Shown: positions 1,311 through 8,253 of the stretch, piece after piece | Position numbering within the stretch: the stretch's first letter is position 1 | How the letters are laid out: each line of letters begins with the position of its first letter | IMG/VR virus record: IMGVR_UViG_3300011952_000012 | Direction: 5' to 3' (one strand) | DNA: 8,253 bases | Source of the DNA: a virus | Taxonomy: Duplodnaviria > Heunggongvirae > Uroviricota > Caudoviricetes | Translations under genes and position numbers: made by a program | The notes under the pieces: model-generated | Told to the model about the DNA's origin: nothing | Databases searched by the model: none | The model's input: the letters and a program-made list of their open reading frames with translations, nothing else

Positions 1311-3207
1311 GAGCGTCTCGAGATTGAGCTGGAAACGAATTTTACTGATACGCAGCGCTGCCAGCCCGTATACCCAGCAGTCGAGCGCCTCATTTCGCCG
1401 CCCCTGGTTGTCCCAGCGGTAAACGACGCGACCGTTAATGAGTTTCGGGATCAGAACTTCAGAGACGAGCTGTTTTGCCTCTGTTGTGCCGAATATTTCG
1501 TCGTCGTTTGGAAAATGAATTGCACCCGGTGTCGCTGATTTTGGGTCTGGTTCCAGTGGCAGGGGCATCGCGAGCAAATCTTTTGCTGTGTCAGTACCGA
1601 TTAACGACAAATAAACTTTATTCGCGTTACGTGTACGCGGCATATTTACGACTGGCTGGCCGTATGAGCTTGCGCCTTTAATTGGAATGACCCACAGCGG
1701 ACCGAGTTTCAGCGAGCGGTTATAAACAACCTGCGCATCTATACCGCCGGTATCCCACGCCCAGCGGCTGACGCCGATTGTGGTCCCGTCGCTGCGCCGG
1801 TATTGTTTGCGAATCACTCCGTCGACACGCTGCAGCGTGTCCTCTTCGTCGTAGCGACCGAGGACGATTGTTTTATCAATCAGCCAGCACTCTTCCTCAG
1901 CTCCCCAGCCCCACACGTAACACTCGTAGCGCCCGGACGTCTGAGAGTCGATGCCGCCGGTTATATAAACAACACCGTCAGGAACCTGGCTGGCGTATTT
2001 TTCCCGGCGATTAACCAGAATATCGTGCTCCAGCTGCTCGCTGGCCACGTCGCTCCAAAGCTCGCCGAGCGTCGTGTTATGAAACGTTTTTTCTTTGAGT
2101 GGGTCGCCCTTCGCTTTCAGCCACTCGCTGACAATCTCGCCCCATCCATCAAGGTTTAGTGAATACAGGGCGTTTATCACGATCGCCGCGTGTTTCGGCG
2201 CGCGAACGACGCCACTGTCATGATCAAAAAAATGGATTNNNNNNNNNNTCTCGGGTCCAGGTGCAGTCCTCGGCTATCCAGCGCCCCCCGAGCTCCATTT
2301 TTTCGAGATCGCGATAGTAAAAATGCTCCGGGCAGTGGCAGCACTGGTAATACGCGGACGACGATTTCGACTCGTTGGTCTGCAGGCTGTCATCCCACTT
2401 GAGACCGTATTCGATACCGTCGAAACCAAATACCAGGACCTGCTCCTCGCCACAATGCGGACACTTCAGGTAAAAACGAAACGTCAGATCAGCCGCGTCT
2501 TCCAACATTTCTATATGGCTTTTGCCAGTAACGGTCGGCGTCGAACCAAAAATCGCTTTCGGGTATGCTGCGCCCTTAATTCGAACGAGCGCCAGCTCAA
2601 TTGGCGAGCCTTCGCCTTTACCTTTTTTAGCGACCTCCAGCGGCCAGCCGTCGACCTCGTCACCTTCGACAACCTGTTTCGTCAGTCGACGAAAATTCCC
2701 CGGCGTACTCGCGCCGCGAAAATCAATAATTGCGCCGCTCATCTCTTTGCGCTGGAGATTGTTACGCTCGTTGCTTTTATCCCAGTCTGGGAAAATTTTC
2801 TGAATCACCGGCATTTCGGCGATAGCGGGGTCAACCTCGTCGGCGACAAATCCATCCGATTCGTCATCGATAGGCTGATAGACCACGGCACTACGTTTTT
2901 TGTGCTCAGCGAAATAGAGCAGCGCCGCGACGAGTATTTTTGTATAACCGAGACGAGCTGATTTGCGAACAGACACGATTTTTATCGCGTCGTTAGTCAT
3001 CATATTTAACATCACTACCTGGACCGGCTGAGTCGTCCAGTGGCCAGCAATATGGCTTGAGCCTTCGGGAAGATAAAAATGTTTATCAGCCCACTCAACC
3101 CCCGTCATCGGTATCGTCACGCGCAAGGGATTCAACCCTGTCGAGATCGCGTTCGATATCGCTGACATCGTAATCGCTGAAGTCGATTCGTATGTCTGCC
3201 AGTTCAT
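1311..3207 (-). CDS. Terminase large subunit, lambda gpA family (interrupted by a 10-N run at 2239-2248; C-terminus in the 155-N run)
   Basis: ORF-track pieces 2224..3207 and 1095..2180 are two halves of one protein. N-terminal half has VEWADKHFYLPEG, VSVRKSARLGYTKILVAALLYFAEHKKRS, KCPHCGEEQ; C-terminal half has KEKTFHNTTLGELW, YITGGIDSQ, CWLIDKTIVLGRYDEEDTL, WDTGGIDAQVVYNRS, VIPIKGASSYGQPV, YLSLIGTDTAKD, RRNEALDCWVYGLAALRIS, all colinear with lambda gpA as I recall it. Start may be 3207 (ORF track) or the internal ATG at 3168 (MSAISN..., closer to lambda MNISNS...). Confidence 0.92.
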
Positions 3208-3661
3208 TCAGGGCTATTGCCAGCTCCTCTCGTAATACACTGCTCGCCTCCTGCGGCATTTCCGGCCACACCTTTTTTAACCGTGGTGGCCACGATTCGA
3301 CACGGGTACGTAATTCAACTGCGACGCGAGATACAGCTACGCTGATTAATTCAATTGGCGCGTAGCGTTTAGCAAGAATGCGGCGTTTCACGCGAGCCAT
3401 CAGGATTCGCTCCTGCCGTTCCTCATTTTTCAACCACTGCTCGCGATTTTTTTCGGGAGAATTGTCCCCCGCTTCCGGTTCGTCATTACTAGTTGTGTCG
3501 CGTCTATTGCTCCGGAGATAACGAATATAAAAATGGCGCCATGCGTCAAGTTCCCAATCGCCACGTCCTTGGGGGACTGGGGCTCCCGGAAGTTTTGCAA
3601 GATCGCGCAGACGACGATCAGATAGCAGTAAATGTGCTGCGACCTCAGCCTGACTTGCCAT
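3095..3661 (-). CDS. Terminase small subunit (Nu1-like DNA-packaging protein)
   Basis: 188-aa ORF immediately upstream of and overlapping the terminase large subunit. RBS GAGGA about 6 nt before the ATG at 3661. N-terminus (LSDRRLRDLAKLPGAPVPQGRGDWELDAWRHFYIRY) loosely resembles the lambda Nu1 N-terminal region (ASIRTIQNWQEQGMPVLRGGGKGNEVLYDSAAVIKWY); acidic C-terminus. Called mainly on synteny. Confidence 0.65.
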   Translation of the reverse strand: MASQAEVAAHLLLSDRRLRDLAKLPGAPVPQGRGDWELDAWRHFYIRYLRSNRRDTTSNDEPEAGDNSPEKNREQWLKNEERQERILMARVKRRILAKRYAPIELISVAVSRVAVELRTRVESWPPRLKKVWPEMPQEASSVLREELAIALNELADIRIDFSDYDVSDIERDLDRVESLARDDTDDGG

Positions 3662-3724
3662 TAAAAATCCTCACCGGAACCGGAAATACCCAAAATGAAA
3701 AAATACTAAAAACGAGTGAGTTTT

Positions 3725-3775
3725 TGCGCGTCTACCGACCCTCGGTGTTTTGAATTTCGGAAAGGACCCGCGACC
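3725..3775. other. Putative cos region (cosQ-like and cosN-like elements)
   Basis: About 60-100 bp upstream of the Nu1-like start. Minus strand reads CGGGTCCTTTCCG (plus 3758-3770), matching the lambda right-end motif ACGGGTCCTTTCCGG as I recall it, followed about 11 nt later by the hyphenated palindrome ACCGA-GGG-TCGGT (plus 3734-3746), a candidate nicking site. Confidence 0.45.
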
Positions 3776-4032
3776 AGGGGGGCTATATCCCTTTCAGGAC
3801 AGGAATCGGGGGCTCGCATCAGGTTCATCAAACTCGACTGTAGCCTCGCGGCGTACTTGTTTGCATACATCAGCTTTGTGTATCTCATTATCAGCGTAAG
3901 CTTTCACTTTGGCAGCGAGCCATCCTTTTGCGCTGTATCGATAGACTACCGAACAAAGTTTCCCCTATGTGTATATATCTTGAAATTATTGATATTCTTA
4001 CAGAAAAGCAACAACCATGAGCACACAAAAAA

Positions 4033-4262
4033 ATGAACAAAGAAAAAATCGAAGCCTTAATGAGCGTAATATTAAAAGAAGCTGACCCCAAAAAATTTCC
4101 TGAGAAATTATCAGAGGACGCCATCGTATCTTTTTATCGTGCGAACTCCTCTTACCTACATTGTTCAACTTTAAGAGAATGGTTAAGCGGCGAAGCAGAG
4201 CCTTCAGATGAGATACTTGAGGAGATTATGGTTCAGAACAACTGGCGCGCAACTAAATGGTC
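4033..4262 (+). CDS. Hypothetical protein, low-GC moron-like ORF (3' end lost in or near the 10-N run)
   Basis: Only plus-strand ORF with a plausible hydrophilic translation (MNKEKIEALMSVILKEADPKKFPEKLSEDAIVSFYRANSSYLHCSTLREWLSGEAEPSDEILEEIMVQNNWRATKW). Markedly AT-rich compared with flanking phage genes, preceded by an AT-rich region 3890-4030. No clear SD. The ORF-track continuation after the gap is antisense to the lipoprotein signal peptide and is probably not real. Confidence 0.35.
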
Positions 4263-4272
4263 NNNNNNNNNN
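4263..4272. other. Run of 10 N (placeholder gap) between convergent genes
   Basis: Directly visible. Confidence 0.98.
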
Positions 4273-4403
4273 GTAATCTTCGTACCCGGCGCGATCGTCA
4301 CGTGTTTAATGCTGCTGCCGTCAGCGCGAGTCGCTTCGGTGTATGTCGAATGTGTGCAGCCTGCCATCGTGAAGAACGCGACAGCTAAGAGAAGTTTTTT
4401 CAC
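4273..4403 (-). CDS. Putative lipoprotein (N-terminal part; possible spanin or Bor-like outer-membrane lipoprotein), 3' end in or beyond the N-run
   Basis: GTG at 4403-4401 lies 7 nt after the endolysin stop (TAG 4413-4411). Translation V/MKKLLLAVAFFTMAGCTHSTYTEATRADGSSIKHVTIAPGTKIT... has a canonical lipoprotein signal peptide (KK n-region, hydrophobic core, lipobox-like MAG-C). All three minus frames hit stops within about 25 codons below the gap, so the protein is short unless the gap hides more. Confidence 0.55.
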
Positions 4404-4410
4404 GTTTTAC

Positions 4411-4890
4411 CTACGCTTCTGAGATAGATTTCTCAGCATTCACCAATGGAAGTGATTGTGGAACATCCGTTTGACCTGCTGGCCAGCGATAGCCTGTTAC
4501 GCGGGAACGAGGAAAAGCTTTGATATTTACTTCATCTGCCTGGTTGCCCCCCAAAATCATTAAATCCCCGGCGGCATTTTTCCCGACAACAAAACCAACG
4601 TGGCCACCGCCAGACCGAGACAGAATAGCAATGCATCCATAGGCAGGTTCCTTCAGTTCATTACCCCAATCGAGATAAGAATTCGCAGACTCAAAACGCG
4701 TTGAGCGAATACCAACACGTTCCAGCATTGCTCCGGTGAAGGCGGCGCACCATGGTGTTTCGTCATCCTTAATACCGCCGCGTTTGATATCTTTCCAGTA
4801 CTGCACAATTTCTGCAGCATGTTGCTTCCCTTTCATTTCCCGGATGCCGAGATTTTTTCGTGCCTCAATTAGCCATTTAGGATCGGTCAT
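4411..4890 (-). CDS. Putative endolysin: Cys-His peptidase (CHAP / NlpC-P60-like, TIGR02594-like) peptidoglycan hydrolase
   Basis: 159-aa ORF with RBS GGAGA about 6 nt upstream. Candidate catalytic Cys in DETPWCAAFTG and His in GGGHVGFVVG. Sits directly after two small membrane proteins and before a lipoprotein. Start overlaps the upstream stop (TAATG). Confidence 0.6.
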   Translation of the reverse strand: MTDPKWLIEARKNLGIREMKGKQHAAEIVQYWKDIKRGGIKDDETPWCAAFTGAMLERVGIRSTRFESANSYLDWGNELKEPAYGCIAILSRSGGGHVGFVVGKNAAGDLMILGGNQADEVNIKAFPRSRVTGYRWPAGQTDVPQSLPLVNAEKSISEA

Positions 4891-5162
4891 TACCTGTCTC
4901 CTGTTATTTTTGAAATATTTCCTCGTGCCCGCCAGACAGCAATACAGATGGTGAGGTTGAGAAAGAACTCTGCGGGATCAACCTGCGTATATTTCCCGTA
5001 AAAAATTCGTAGGGCTATCCACGCAGCAGACAGAATCGCCAGGTAAGCAGTTAGTGAGATAAAAAAACGATAGCGGCCTGTTTTTTGAAAAAACATCAAC
5101 CGCAGTGCCAGCATCAGACAGATAATTGCATTGGCATTGATGAGGACAGAGTGCAGGGTCAT
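4890..5162 (-). CDS. Small integral membrane protein (holin or antiholin-like), second gene of the lysis cassette
   Basis: 90-aa ORF with about three hydrophobic segments (AIICLMLALRLMFF, FFISLTAYLAILSAAWIALRIF, FFLNLTICIAVW). RBS AAGGGGA about 8 nt upstream. Stop and start overlaps with both neighbours (TAATG) suggest translational coupling. Confidence 0.6.
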   Translation of the reverse strand: MTLHSVLINANAIICLMLALRLMFFQKTGRYRFFISLTAYLAILSAAWIALRIFYGKYTQVDPAEFFLNLTICIAVWRARGNISKITGDR

Positions 5163-5545
5163 TATTTCATCCCCTTATCTGATTTCCATAAACGAGCTTG
5201 TGACATGATCCGCAACAGTGATGTAACGCTGATTACTGATGCAACCAGTGCACCAATGGCGGGAGAGACTTTTACTGTTACGGGAGGGTTCAGGTGACTC
5301 AGCACCGCATTCAGAATACCGGTAATGATGGCTGATGCTGTCTCAGCGCAATACACACCGCCAACAAACGAAATGAGTGCGAAAATAACCTGCTTCCAGA
5401 ATCGATGCTGCCCGGATGACAACACATAGAGAGCTGCGCCTGCCAGCGCACAGATCATCACTGCAGGTGTTGCCTCAGGAAATAACGCAGCAAACGTCAC
5501 CCCCGCCGAGCCAGCAGCAACGCCAGCGGTTAGAGGTTCAGACAT
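5162..5545 (-). CDS. Putative holin (multi-TM membrane protein), first gene of the late/lysis operon
   Basis: ORF track gives 5162..5671, but the ATG at 5545 (MSEPLTAGVAAGSAGVTFAALF...) has an RBS AGGAAA 6 nt upstream and lies downstream of the terminator hairpin; the longer start would run through that hairpin. 127 aa with 3-4 hydrophobic segments and a charged C-terminus (RLWKSDKGMK). Confidence 0.6.
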   Translation of the reverse strand: MSEPLTAGVAAGSAGVTFAALFPEATPAVMICALAGAALYVLSSGQHRFWKQVIFALISFVGGVYCAETASAIITGILNAVLSHLNPPVTVKVSPAIGALVASVISVTSLLRIMSQARLWKSDKGMK

Positions 5546-5657: not shown

Positions 5658-6092
5658 TTATACGCAAACATCGTCTAAATGGTTCTGATAATGATGCAAA
5701 GTTGCAAAAAGTGCCACTTCATCAAGTGCTCTCACCGCCTCTTTCATTCCTACCCAGTGCGGGGAGTATGTTTCGCACCAGGTGGAACGAGAAACAGACA
5801 ACATTCCAGCTAGCGCAGATCCGGCCATCTCCTTAAAATCCTCGCGTTTATTTGCTGCTGCGACCGCCTGCACGGACAACCACACCAACGAAAGCAGGCG
5901 CTTGACTACTTTTCTCTGAGTTGACGCAGAGATGTTTCCTTTATAGCGACTCCAGACAGCCTCACAAATAGCTGTTTGGTGTTTGAACGCCAGGTTACCA
6001 CCGTAGCAATAGCGCAACCACGCCTGCTGGCTAACGTCGAGCGCGTTCACGGCACGGCGCCACGATGAATCAGCGAATTCAAAATCATTCAT
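5658..6092 (-). CDS. Putative late-gene antiterminator (Q-like), 144 aa from the ATG at 6092; may continue upstream across the N-run
   Basis: Open frame with a credible translation (MNDFEFADSSWRRAVNALDVSQQAWLRYCYGGNLAFKHQTAICEAVWSRYKGN...). It is the last gene before the promoter/terminator region and the holin, which is the Q position in lambdoid phages. I do not recognise the sequence as a specific Q family, so the function is inferred from synteny. Confidence 0.45.
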   Translation of the reverse strand: MNDFEFADSSWRRAVNALDVSQQAWLRYCYGGNLAFKHQTAICEAVWSRYKGNISASTQRKVVKRLLSLVWLSVQAVAAANKREDFKEMAGSALAGMLSVSRSTWCETYSPHWVGMKEAVRALDEVALFATLHHYQNHLDDVCV

Positions 6093-6126: not shown

Positions 6127-6136
6127 NNNNNNNNNN
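6127..6136. other. Run of 10 N (placeholder gap) inside the Q-like region
   Basis: Directly visible. Confidence 0.98.
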
Positions 6137-6613: not shown

Positions 6614-7206
6614 GATGTGTAATCCAGCAGCTGCGCGGCAGCATTTTCAGCGGCCTCCTGAGAGGCAAACGTGCGGAACAAAATATAATTCCACAGCACA
6701 TCTAAAACGGCTGAATACAGTTGACCGAACTCAAGATCGTCCATCGCAGCAAACGAGATTGAACGAGGTACGCGCATCAAACTGCCATCCGGCATCTGAT
6801 GAACGTCATAAAACCCAGCTTCCATAATCGCCCAGGCGCGAAACGCCTCGAACGACTTCACCGCACTGATATTCCCCGCGCGCTTTTCCGACTCATCGAG
6901 AAGATACTGATCAGCCAGCTCTGCCATGACATCACCGTGTCCACCGTAATACGCCAGTAACTTAACGTAGCCATGGACCAGTTCGCGCTCCGCAGGAGAA
7001 ATAGCCCCTCCGGACGGATGCCAGTAATCAAAGCCCAGGTTTAGAAGTGAGAAAAATTTACGATGAAACGCGGGATTACGCGCCTGTTTGAAATCTGCAT
7101 ACACAACAGCATCTGGTTTGACTCGTTCAGTCAACCAGCGTTGCGTGTCTGGTGTCGCGGGTATTAGCGAACCGCCGGATACCCTGATAAATGAATGCTG
7201 CGCCAT
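6610..7206 (-). CDS. Conserved phage protein of unknown function (nin-region gene, possibly DUF1367-like)
   Basis: 198-aa ORF with RBS TGGAG about 8 nt before the ATG at 7206 and a globular-looking translation. Stop overlaps the YbcO-like start. Family assignment is a guess from neighbourhood. Confidence 0.7.
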   Translation of the reverse strand: MAQHSFIRVSGGSLIPATPDTQRWLTERVKPDAVVYADFKQARNPAFHRKFFSLLNLGFDYWHPSGGAISPAERELVHGYVKLLAYYGGHGDVMAELADQYLLDESEKRAGNISAVKSFEAFRAWAIMEAGFYDVHQMPDGSLMRVPRSISFAAMDDLEFGQLYSAVLDVLWNYILFRTFASQEAAENAAAQLLDYTS

Positions 7207-7283: not shown

Positions 7284-7463
7284 TTACGCGTCAGGGGGTG
7301 TAATAGTATATCCAGCTGTTTCTGCCAACTCGAGAAACGCCAGCAGGCTGGCAATCCGCTCGTCGTCGCTGAGGACGCGTACAATCACTACGCGCCCCTC
7401 TTCTCGTTTGATTACAGCCCGGCACGTATCCGGTAATTTGCTGATCGCCTCGTGTGTGTTCAT
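7284..7463 (-). CDS. Small hypothetical protein (59 aa) under a LexA-box promoter; candidate SOS-induced regulator such as an antirepressor
   Basis: ATG at 7463 preceded by SD AGGGGGA about 5 nt upstream (the ORF-track start at 7484 lacks an SD). Translation MNTHEAISKLPDTCRAVIKREEGRVVIVRVLSDDERIASLLAFLELAETAGYTITPPDA. The promoter and LexA box lie 20-55 bp upstream. Confidence 0.55.
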   Translation of the reverse strand: MNTHEAISKLPDTCRAVIKREEGRVVIVRVLSDDERIASLLAFLELAETAGYTITPPDA

Positions 7464-7481
7464 ATTTCCCCCTGACAGAAA

Positions 7482-7501
7482 CACTGTATATATATACAGT
7501 A
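7482..7501. promoter_or_regulatory. LexA operator (SOS box), near-perfect consensus
   Basis: CACTGTATATATATACAGTA matches the E. coli LexA consensus TACTGTATATATATACAGTA at 19 of 20 positions (CTGT-N8-ACAG with an alternating AT spacer). Lies in the intergenic region just upstream of the 59-aa gene. Confidence 0.8.
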
Positions 7502-7519
7502 TTTTTTATCGTATGTCAT
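7491..7519 (-). promoter_or_regulatory. Sigma70-like promoter for the 59-aa gene, -10 embedded in the LexA box
   Basis: Minus strand ATGACA (7519-7514), 17-bp spacer, TATATA (7496-7491). The -10 lies inside the SOS box, the usual arrangement for LexA-repressed promoters. Predicted start about 20 nt upstream of the ATG. Confidence 0.45.
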
Positions 7520-7612
7520 AACATCAAATGCAATGGGGGAATAATGAGCAATTATATTCACCGCGTGAATTTGATTAAACGGTTTATTCCCGGAAAAAAC
7601 GGTTTATGGTTA

Positions 7613-8253
7613 TTATTTTTCATTTCCATAAACATGGGTTAACCATTTTCTAATAGTTGACTCCGCCGGAACGTCAGCATATTTTTTTACGAGAATTTCG
7701 TTAATACGTGCCACCGCCGCACTAACCCGTGCGTGGGGATTATTTGTGAAAAAAACCTCTGCAATCTGTAATGCCTCGTCTTTTAGCCTGTGCTGTGGCC
7801 TCCCTCCGCCCTTTGTTCCCAGATAACGCGCCAGTTGTTTGAACCGGTACGCCACGATTAGTGGCCGCATCATCATATTGAAAAAATCACGTGCATCGTC
7901 GTCCTCTCCTCGCGCTATCAACAGCGCAAAAAACAGGTACGGTATTGTATATACGTCAGGGGAAATCATTACGCGCCTGCACACAGTCGGCGCCAGTGCG
8001 ATCAGTGTGTCTGCCAGCGCGTCGCTCTCTCCTCCACGTTTGTAATACCGGTAGAGTGGTCCTAAGTCGAGTTCACTGGTATTGAATCCAGTCACAGCCT
8101 CACGAACCTCGTCTGCCAGCGCGTTGTAAATCGCCCCTGTACGTTTTGTGTAGAGTCTCCGGGTTGCCCCCCGGTTATCCAGCGCCCGCAGCATGTCAAG
8201 TCGGGTGACAAACGTTTCAGGCCAGTCCTCATAGAATGATCTCATATCCACCT
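7613..8253 (-). CDS. Hypothetical protein (at least 212 aa, probably truncated at the window edge)
   Basis: Long minus-strand ORF with a non-repetitive translation (...RSFYEDWPETFVTRLDMLRALDNRGATRRLYTKRTG...TIRKWLTHVYGNEK). The frame is open to the last base of the window; the ORF-track start is a GTG at 8251 with an ATG at 8245. No family recognised. Confidence 0.65.
   Translation of the reverse strand, partial: VDMRSFYEDWPETFVTRLDMLRALDNRGATRRLYTKRTGAIYNALADEVREAVTGFNTSELDLGPLYRYYKRGGESDALADTLIALAPTVCRRVMISPDVYTIPYLFFALLIARGEDDDARDFFNMMMRPLIVAYRFKQLARYLGTKGGGRPQHRLKDEALQIAEVFFTNNPHARVSAAVARINEILVKKYADVPAESTIRKWLTHVYGNEK

Follow-up and report, generated by a model that had tools for sequence, protein, structure and literature searches.

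Positions 4033–4403 of the 8,253-nt sequence analyzed here (IMG/VR record IMGVR_UViG_3300011952_000012, referred to as the window) appear to hold the tail-to-tail junction of two conserved modules of a lambdoid Escherichia coli prophage with a contractile tail and lambda-type head genes: on the minus strand a lysis cassette ending in the gene for an unclassified lipoprotein, and on the plus strand an antisense gene, at the position that bor has in lambda, encoding a predicted XRE-fold protein with a helix-turn-helix (HTH). Judged from their sequence conservation, both open reading frames (ORFs) are real genes, and both carry the label 'hypothetical' everywhere at present. The overall picture, together with the functional roles that we infer for the two products, is held here with fair confidence.

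Nearly all genes of the window are on the minus strand, in the order NinB/DUF1367, YbcO/DUF1364, Q, two holin-type genes, endolysin, lipoprotein gene, the intergenic region with the presumed cos, and the genes for the terminase small (terS) and large (terL) subunits. The 759 bp around the locus found matches in 444 of 5,426 complete E. coli genomes with 95% to 96% identity, chromosomal in every case, and this stretch, which holds the plus-strand ORF, was covered to at least 80% in 418 of these genomes. It was also matched by one deposited phage record, vB_EcoM-705R4, in which a contractile tail is combined with lambda-type head genes, and tblastn searches with each of the two proteins against 50,697 phage genomes gave ON470624 as the sole match. 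An exact-match search of species-representative genomes with the window's own sequence returned no match.

The lipoprotein gene starts with GTG at nt 4403, leaving a 7-nt gap to the end of the endolysin ORF at nt 4411, and its product begins with VKKLLLAVAFFTMAGC continued by THSTYTEATRADG..., with KK in the n-region, a hydrophobic core, and the lipobox M-A-G-C. The textbook signal peptide and lipobox and the close spacing described in an earlier reading made from the letters alone (the sequence-only reading) were thereby borne out. Homologues formed 70 clusters in a single-query search and 128 in a profile search, all hypothetical or 'lipoprotein' by name and all from Enterobacteriaceae (Salmonella, Citrobacter, Escherichia, Enterobacter, Leclercia, and Superficieibacter), and a profile scan of species-representative genomes detected the protein only in Escherichia whittamii and two Superficieibacter. 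The full form is about 64 amino acids (aa) and the mature peptide about 45–48 residues long. The signal peptide varies freely, while the mature core, C-(T/S)-H-T-T-Y-T-E-A-T-R-A-D-G-S-T-V-K-H-V-A-I-A-P-G-T-K-I-T-T-A-x-G-G-C-I-D-S-T-G-A-x-T-T-C-P, which contains two further cysteines, is invariant or nearly so across the family. Over 40 core codons the median omega was 0.075, with synonymous sites near saturation (pS of about 0.65), which indicates strong purifying selection on the gene. Members have MAGC or LAGC as their lipobox, followed at +2 by Thr or Ser and not by Asp, as in outer-membrane lipoproteins, and the LPAM_1 profile matched 31 of 46 members; the mature part has an isoelectric point (pI) of 6.9 and a polar C-terminus (...IDSTGAVTTCPxx).

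Searches of Pfam, PHROG, NCBIfam, and PADLOC with the lipoprotein gave nothing beyond matches at the level of the signal peptide. Matches to PHROG 'Rz-like spanin' families had E values of 1e-3 or weaker, the best stretch shown (residues 1–47) being led by the signal peptide; the match to PHROG 1119 (Cor) was weak and confined to the signal peptide (about residues 1–20); and the Bor family of Pfam was not matched at E values up to 10. As a separate observation, in the Superficieibacter loci L020–L022, L054, and L055 (homologous loci are given by their L numbers) the gene lies beside a major facilitator superfamily transporter gene at a decayed prophage edge, with Terminase_2 fragments and insertion sequence remnants nearby, and L020 has a second partial copy about 3.5 kb away (nt 7042–7200); the Superficieibacter copy could be domesticated or stranded.

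In 23 of 27 loci the lipoprotein gene was located 2–30 nt after an endolysin gene. The preceding enzyme was of the CHAP/TIGR02594 type in 20 loci, Peptidase_M15_4 in L004 and L042, and Peptidase_M15_3 in L007, a podovirus-like Salmonella prophage in which the holin-endolysin-lipoprotein cassette lies between the scaffold and capsid genes; linkage to the lysis cassette was conserved across three endolysin families and several phage architectures. A heuristic scan of 12 cassettes with the lipoprotein, from -3 kb to +1.5 kb, found no ORF resembling an inner-membrane spanin (i-spanin), and recovered the Rz/Rz1 of the control locus, L025. This control possesses the same two holin families as the window, followed after the endolysin gene by embedded Rz/Rz1; Aeromonas phage phiARM81ld, with a 65% identical TIGR02594 endolysin, has annotated Rz and Rz1 in the following slot, and Xanthomonas phage DoCa11, with a homologous TIGR02594 endolysin, an annotated Rz. 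Because these three hold Rz/Rz1 or Rz there and no i-spanin accompanies the lipoprotein, the latter is assigned, on gene arrangement, to the spanin slot of cassettes without a spanin, and moves with the cassette between phage types. It segregates independently of the HTH gene, since many loci with the lipoprotein lack the HTH gene and the four remote loci with an HTH homologue all lack the lipoprotein. In L044, a second and unrelated 82-aa lipoprotein gene (MKKTLLAALFLSLTAC..., nt 3199–3447) was observed 3 nt after the first, in a cassette of the Escherichia type.

From its position, the lipoprotein may serve as a substitute for spanins, a role that seems plausible to us while falling somewhat short of likely. 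Its gene would be the last of a Q-dependent late lysis operon (holin_8, 3TM holin, TIGR02594/CHAP endolysin, lipoprotein), and would be translated late together with the lysis genes. Bacterial lipoproteins are processed by Lgt, LspA, and Lnt and sorted by Lol according to the residue at +2; since the lipobox and the +2 residue fit this biology, the protein would be lipidated at Cys16 and sent by Lol to the outer membrane (Thr/Ser at +2). There it would act at the outer-membrane step of lysis, in place of the Rz/Rz1 of cassettes with homologous holins or endolysins, and, because its sequence is so highly conserved, it would engage a specific conserved host envelope partner rather than cause generic membrane damage. 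More tentatively, and as a rather doubtful generalization, it may represent a class of one-component outer-membrane lysis factors without an inner-membrane anchor, acting from the inner leaflet of the outer membrane, in which the 45-residue peptide binds a conserved enterobacterial envelope component (an outer membrane-peptidoglycan tether, the outer-membrane biogenesis machinery, or a phospholipase), and which has been captured repeatedly by the cassettes of unrelated temperate phages.

Several observations weigh against a function in lysis. The protein is not proline-rich, unlike Rz1, has no C-terminal transmembrane domain (TMD), unlike T1 gp11, and is not cationic, unlike phiKT gp28. Sequence usually varies widely among spanins and disruptins, and the conservation of the lipoprotein would fit a receptor- or enzyme-binding role equally well. 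The gene follows a KilA-N/Ant-like gene in L041 and L043 and a holin gene in L017; some carriers look defective, the Q gene of L001 having an internal stop; and only 1 of the 50,697 deposited phage genomes carries the family. The AlphaFold2 model from a 46-sequence alignment was unreliable (predicted local distance difference test score, pLDDT, of 59.5; predicted template modelling score, pTM, of 0.26). In the literature searched, no paper mentioned the lipoprotein motif and none dealt with either gene family; searches on lysis cassettes with TIGR02594, on phages that lack a spanin, and on the phage name yielded no functional data, and the papers on LambdaSo, LysZ, and the type X secretion system were set aside as unrelated.

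The same conservation keeps alive a second function, as it argues for a specific host partner: the lipoprotein might mask a receptor or exclude superinfecting phages, like Llp of T5 and Cor of phi80 and N15, being made late and keeping progeny or superinfecting phages from attaching to lysing cells and their debris through a conserved outer-membrane protein. An extremely conserved mature peptide (omega of about 0.07) suits a specific protein-protein interaction, Llp is likewise a small outer-membrane lipoprotein with cysteines, and weak PHROG matches to Cor were found. These matches, however, comprise the signal peptide only (residues 1–20), and the same peptide occurs in contractile-tail, podovirus-type, and other prophages, whose receptors should differ; moreover, Cor and Llp genes lie near tail or receptor-binding genes, not after the endolysin gene. 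Receptor masking is therefore regarded as unlikely, although it deserves to be kept in mind.

The sequence-only reading had taken the whole interval as one acquired accessory locus (moron), with the lipoprotein as a possible Bor-like surface protein or spanin component; in the Bor-like case it would be produced by the prophage and serve at the cell surface or in virulence. The composition and architecture of the plus-strand ORF are indeed moron-like, the site is a hot spot for cargo in related phages, and Bor is also a small lipoprotein encoded near the lysis genes. The lipoprotein gene, in contrast, has a normal GC content (53%), is co-oriented with the late genes and closely follows the endolysin gene in most loci whatever the endolysin family, travels with the cassette into unrelated phage types, segregates independently of the HTH gene, and shows no match to Bor or to any Pfam, PHROG, or NCBIfam family beyond the signal peptide. 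A single moron spanning both genes is thus improbable, and membership of the lipoprotein in the accessory locus and its likeness to Bor were not upheld; nor is it a conventional spanin component, with neither an i-spanin partner in the cassettes scanned nor a C-terminal membrane anchor. Still less probable is a role for the lipoprotein in regulating the adjacent peptidoglycan hydrolase or conferring immunity to it, so that wall cleavage would be delayed or confined, in the way of the immunity proteins of type VI secretion system (T6SS) amidases: its gene is directly downstream of a TIGR02594/NlpC-P60 hydrolase gene, and TIGR02594 domains occur in T6SS effectors paired with small immunity genes (PMC13055248), but lipoproteins of about 70% identity, essentially the same peptide, follow three unrelated folds (CHAP, M15_3, and M15_4), whereas a specific inhibitor should co-vary with its enzyme.

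The plus-strand ORF starts with ATG at nt 4033 and remains open through nt 4262 and into a run of N. As the sequence-only reading had stated, it is low in GC (40.0%, with 38.5% in its 143-nt leader, versus 50.9% for the window and 45% to 53% for neighboring genes), and, in keeping with that reading's single credible plus-strand gene, closed relatives annotate no other in the equivalent stretch. The alignment of distant homologues places the start at the Met equivalent to nt 4033, giving an 81-aa form that is shared with them. An 86-aa product annotated in many E. coli genomes uses an upstream ATG; the equivalent ATG at nt 4017 is out of frame in the window (an A-run of 7 bases versus 6), and for this reason nt 4033 was taken as the start and the 86-aa annotation of relatives as inapplicable here.

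The product matched PHROG 5191, a family of unknown function, from end to end (E value 9.5e-62). A word-indexed search found only near-identical Escherichia proteins, and an exhaustive HMMER search added four homologues of 81–85 aa with 33% to 51% identity; 16 columns of the alignment were invariant, including W-L-x-G-x-x-E...D, and the HTH-turn signature W-L-x-G-x-x-E-P-S-D-E-I-L was conserved in the family. The ratio pN/pS was 0.17–0.49, from few substitutions. The AlphaFold2 model from a seven-sequence alignment had four helices (pLDDT 82.9, pTM 0.71) and, as modelled, is of the Cro/C1-type helical fold. In a Foldseek search against viral models (BFVD), matches were weak, and those with names were nearly all HTH_XRE or cI-like. 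No match was found in PADLOC for either this product or the lipoprotein, NCBIfam gave nothing for it, and a sequence search of the PDB gave nothing meaningful. A reading of the ORF as a frame left open by chance within an AT-rich spacer, which the lack of a strong Shine-Dalgarno sequence before ATG 4033 and of a promoter called by scan might suggest, is contradicted by the conservation data (homologues at 33% to 51% identity keeping length, invariant columns, and position; the pN/pS; the PHROG 5191 match) and by the confident predicted fold, and hardly merits belief.

The product is thus modelled as an XRE-fold protein, either DNA-binding or partner-binding, and would be a small regulator transcribed apart from the late genes, from a promoter of its own, and most likely expressed from the prophage, like bor in lambda. 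A candidate extended -10 element, TGATATTCT, was located by its pattern at nt 3990–3998 in the leader, where the common E. coli form (L001) has TGATATCAT; a consensus promoter scan called no plus-strand promoter, TGATATTCT being passed over because of its poor -35. This result weighs against the proposed regulator, as do the match to the Pfam family HTH_3 (PF01381), which scored 15.8 bits versus a cut-off of 23 and covered residues 50–70 only; the acidic pI of 5.1–5.4, unusual for a DNA binder, in a family whose charge is not conserved; and a repeat search upstream of the gene, which gave only short repeats at chance level and no operator-like inverted repeats. The last three points favor an 81-aa XRE-like protein that would not bind DNA but act on another protein, in the manner of TP901-1 MOR or SinI-type partners; it might be an orphan antitoxin, an antirepressor, or a factor of the anti-sigma kind. 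Since the best structural matches are DNA-binding domains, the HTH-turn signature is conserved, and no toxin or partner gene is consistently adjacent, we consider this alternative unlikely, yet a serious one.

Whether the HTH gene is a moron, as the sequence-only reading proposed, depends on the features considered. The gene stands as an autonomous unit of low GC, antisense to the late operon and placed between cos and the lysis genes, with a candidate promoter element, and its architecture suggests a moron. Low GC, an AT-rich leader, and a downstream hairpin were found in most family members, GC being 40% versus 51% for the window, 33% versus 46% in L025, and 35% versus 42% in L052. A terminator of its own is also indicated: relatives have a GC-rich hairpin at the stop codon, deleted in the window's lineage, and stem-loops follow the homologues in L025 and L052, with a T-run in L052. 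Sporadic presence among close relatives, on the other hand, was not observed. All 21 fetched loci with this terS carry the gene, one in truncated form (L036), and its start lies about 370 bp from that of terS in the loci measured, except for 174 bp in L036; its absence is restricted to loci with another terS family (L014 and L039). In the four remote loci with a homologue, the gene is antisense and directly after a lysis or cargo gene. The homologue in L025 has genes for HNH and Terminase_4 upstream and holin-GH19-Rz/Rz1 downstream; that in L023 has a PHROG 51 terS upstream; that in L049–L051 faces a holin_8 gene, with an untyped gene upstream; and that in L052 faces DUF1378, the locus being cut off upstream. 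In the two of these with a typed flank, the terS family differs. The HTH gene is therefore conserved and position-specific at the boundary of the lysis and packaging modules, and is neither variable nor recently acquired in this phage group.

What varies across related prophages is not the HTH gene but the 3′-3′ junction between it and the lipoprotein gene, which is the variable 'moron' space. The spacing ranged from 0 to 2.4 kb (3 bp in L038, 66 bp in L026, about 1.0–1.2 kb in L030 and L034, and 2.4 kb in L012), and the cargo comprised KilA-N, DUF2158, and DUF6953 genes together with remnants of foreign terS 5′ ends. Such remnants, from a different terS family (MAKPNWGALQHQFLADHAKTGISPKEWCDA...), were observed at nt 5865–5957 of L012 and 4126–4305 of L034, and because they lie inside the cargo, the latter seems to have arrived through recombination with the lysis-terS junctions of other phages. 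In L012, the DUF2158 and DUF6953 genes are downstream of the HTH gene and co-oriented with it; a reading of the HTH gene as head of a cargo operon was rejected, since the hairpin follows it in L012 too and the cargo differs or is absent elsewhere. Between Rz/Rz1 and the HTH homologue of L025 (nt 4302–4708), a DUF1378 membrane peptide and a 79-aa protein with a Pfam match to the Acb2/Tad1 hairpin are encoded. The 79-aa protein is a possible anti-CBASS or anti-Thoeris sponge, by which the same boundary would host anti-defence cargo in other phages.

Four runs of N are present in the window (nt 1156–1310, 2239–2248, 4263–4272, and 6127–6136), the last three of 10 N each. The 10-N runs are fixed-length placeholders, so the true lengths differ, and the apparent frameshifts across them in Q (nt 6127–6136) and TerL (nt 2239–2248) are placeholder artefacts, not evidence of pseudogenes. 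The sequence-only reading correctly noted the gap exactly between the two genes (nt 4263–4272), but the 3′ ends that it regarded as unknown can be recovered from relatives. IMG/VR contig L038 is 100% identical to the window over 628 nt of one flank and 99.8% over 601 nt of the other, and has 49 bp in place of the gap; the common E. coli form (L001 and L003) has 137 bp, containing the last five codons and stop of the plus-strand ORF, a hairpin, and the last 21 codons of the lipoprotein gene. The hairpin of L001 has an 8-bp GC-rich stem (dG of -16.7 kcal/mol, z of -2.97) just after the stop codon of the ORF, without a U-tract.

Relative to L001, L038 has undergone a deletion of about 90 bp, with loss of the hairpin and the last nine lipoprotein codons. 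The HTH protein of L038 ends in ...ATKWSNRLP* and is intact at 81 aa, the lipoprotein ends in ...GGCIDSTG* at 55 aa versus 64 aa, and the stop codons of the two genes overlap inside one TTAA. The 49 bp beneath nt 4263–4272 are accordingly expected to read ...ATTACTACTGCGAACGGTGGTTGTATTGATTCAACCGGTTAAGGTAACCGATTTGACC... on the minus strand. The interruption of either frame, which the sequence-only reading had regarded as decisive against it, was not seen in this closed sequence, as the plus-strand ORF is intact and the lipoprotein frame is kept, though the lipoprotein of the window's lineage has probably lost its last nine residues, including the conserved Cys60. Because of the loss of this tail, the window's copy may be impaired. 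The 55-aa form constitutes a separate protein cluster of 20 contigs, and the junction was undeleted in all 443 matching complete E. coli genomes. A simple microhomology deletion was considered and rejected: a 7-nt ATTCAAC repeat occurs near both ends, but the junction is unlike a repeat-mediated product.

Table 1. Features of the window at and around the lysis-packaging boundary
Feature	Position (nt)	Strand	Remarks
HTH gene, 5′ 230 nt (76 full codons) of an 81-aa gene; XRE-like, PHROG 5191	4033..4262	+	last codons and stop under N-run
AT-rich leader of the HTH gene, 38.5% GC	3890..4032	+	GC computed
10-N placeholder; 49 bp in L038, 137 bp in the common E. coli form, including GC-rich hairpin	4263..4272	.	
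Lysis-cassette lipoprotein gene, 5′ part (43 full codons); GTG start 4403, signal peptide, lipobox MAGC with Cys16, conserved mature core	4273..4403	-	
Endolysin, CHAP/NlpC-P60-like peptidase	4411..4890	-	TIGR02594, E 2.5e-40; CHAP, 25.8 bits
Three-transmembrane (3TM) holin, Phage_holin_3_7	4890..5162	-	profile matches
First holin-like membrane protein, Phage_holin_8; 127 aa in relatives' annotation	5162..5545	-	
Intergenic stretch between terS and HTH gene, with presumed cos; cosQ-like CGGGTCCTTTCCG at 3758–3770, minus strand	3662..3889	.	sequence reading
Terminase small subunit (terS), divergent from HTH gene	3095..3661	-	PHROG 57, E 2.2e-39; relatives' annotation

Among the other features of the window, the two holin genes form a tandem pair with overlapping stop and start codons (nt 4890–5545), Phage_holin_8 preceding the 3TM Phage_holin_3_7, which may represent a holin/antiholin or a two-holin arrangement; the same pair also heads the cassette of L025 (GH19 endolysin, Rz/Rz1). 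The intergenic CGGGTCCTTTCCG is presumably identical to the cosQ-side sequence at the lambda right end (...ACGGGTCCTTTCCGGT...). On the basis of this resemblance, the presumed cos would be located upstream of both genes, about 260 bp from the HTH start and about 100 bp from terS. The cosQ-like sequence is adjoined by a short hairpin with a T-run (nt 3733–3747). A second AT-rich trough was observed at nt 7400–7700 (GC 0.34–0.39), between ninB and a 212-aa gene at nt 7613–8251, and a 59-aa hypothetical gene is annotated there in relatives.

About 13% of the phages of Gram-negative hosts have no recognisable spanin (PMC6139136), and only one spanin alternative, the phiKT disruptin, has been described (bioRxiv 10.1101/515445). 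The lipoprotein family is without a model in Pfam, PHROG, or NCBIfam, yet 444 of the 5,426 complete E. coli genomes carry the locus, and many assemblies of Salmonella and Citrobacter contain members of the family. Its strong constraint and its place in the spanin slot make it a testable candidate for a third way through the outer membrane, and its conservation suggests a defined host target of possible antibacterial interest.

Compared with Rz/Rz1 of lambda, the lipoprotein has a similar outer-membrane lipoprotein signal, predicted periplasmic cysteines, and a gene directly after that of the endolysin, in the slot held by Rz/Rz1 in L025 and phiARM81ld. It differs in having no i-spanin partner, embedded, overlapped, or adjacent, by the heuristic scan, in a mature part that is not proline-rich and shows no similarity beyond the signal peptide, and in being far more conserved than usual spanins. 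The T1 protein gp11, with 131 aa, is anchored by a C-terminal transmembrane segment and has the length to reach across the periplasm. The lipoprotein resembles this u-spanin in its N-terminal lipoprotein signal and in being encoded by one gene, last in a cassette without an i-spanin, but it ends in a polar C-terminus without a TMD after only about 45–48 mature residues. The defining features of u-spanins and outer-membrane (o-) spanins have been given elsewhere (PMC6139136).

Bacteriocin release proteins, or colicin lysis proteins, are small lipoproteins rich in Thr, Ser, and Gly. They and gp28 of phiKT, a disruptin that replaces the spanin (bioRxiv 10.1101/515445), are precedents for permeabilisation of the outer membrane by a lone small protein that has no partner in the inner membrane. 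Lysis_col was absent from the Pfam scan of the 46 lipoprotein members, no homology to bacteriocin release proteins or gp28 was found, and the lipoprotein, with its pI of 6.9, differs from gp28 in being neither cationic nor amphipathic. From Bor it differs in the orientation of its gene, which is that of the lysis genes and not antisense.

The HTH protein was compared with small stand-alone XRE/Cro-C1 regulators (C-proteins of restriction-modification (R-M) systems, Aca proteins, the DNA-binding domain of BldD, and the N-terminal domains of phage Rep/cI). Unlike these, it is acidic, scores under the threshold of Pfam HTH_3, has one more long helix at its N-terminus and, in place of helix 5, a conserved W-x(3-5)-W-S tail, and is not encoded beside a partner that it would regulate, be it an R-M system, an acr gene, or a toxin gene. 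The antisense gene shows that the lysis-to-packaging boundary holds, besides sporadic cargo, a conserved and position-specific regulator-like gene. The archetypal moron, bor of lambda, lies between Rz and cos and is oriented against the late operon. The HTH gene has the same position and orientation, a deviant base composition, a leader of its own, and a hairpin; unlike bor, which encodes a lipoprotein, it encodes a predicted cytoplasmic XRE-fold protein, is conserved and not sporadic within its phage group, and in this group lies at a constant distance from terS, not from the lysis genes.

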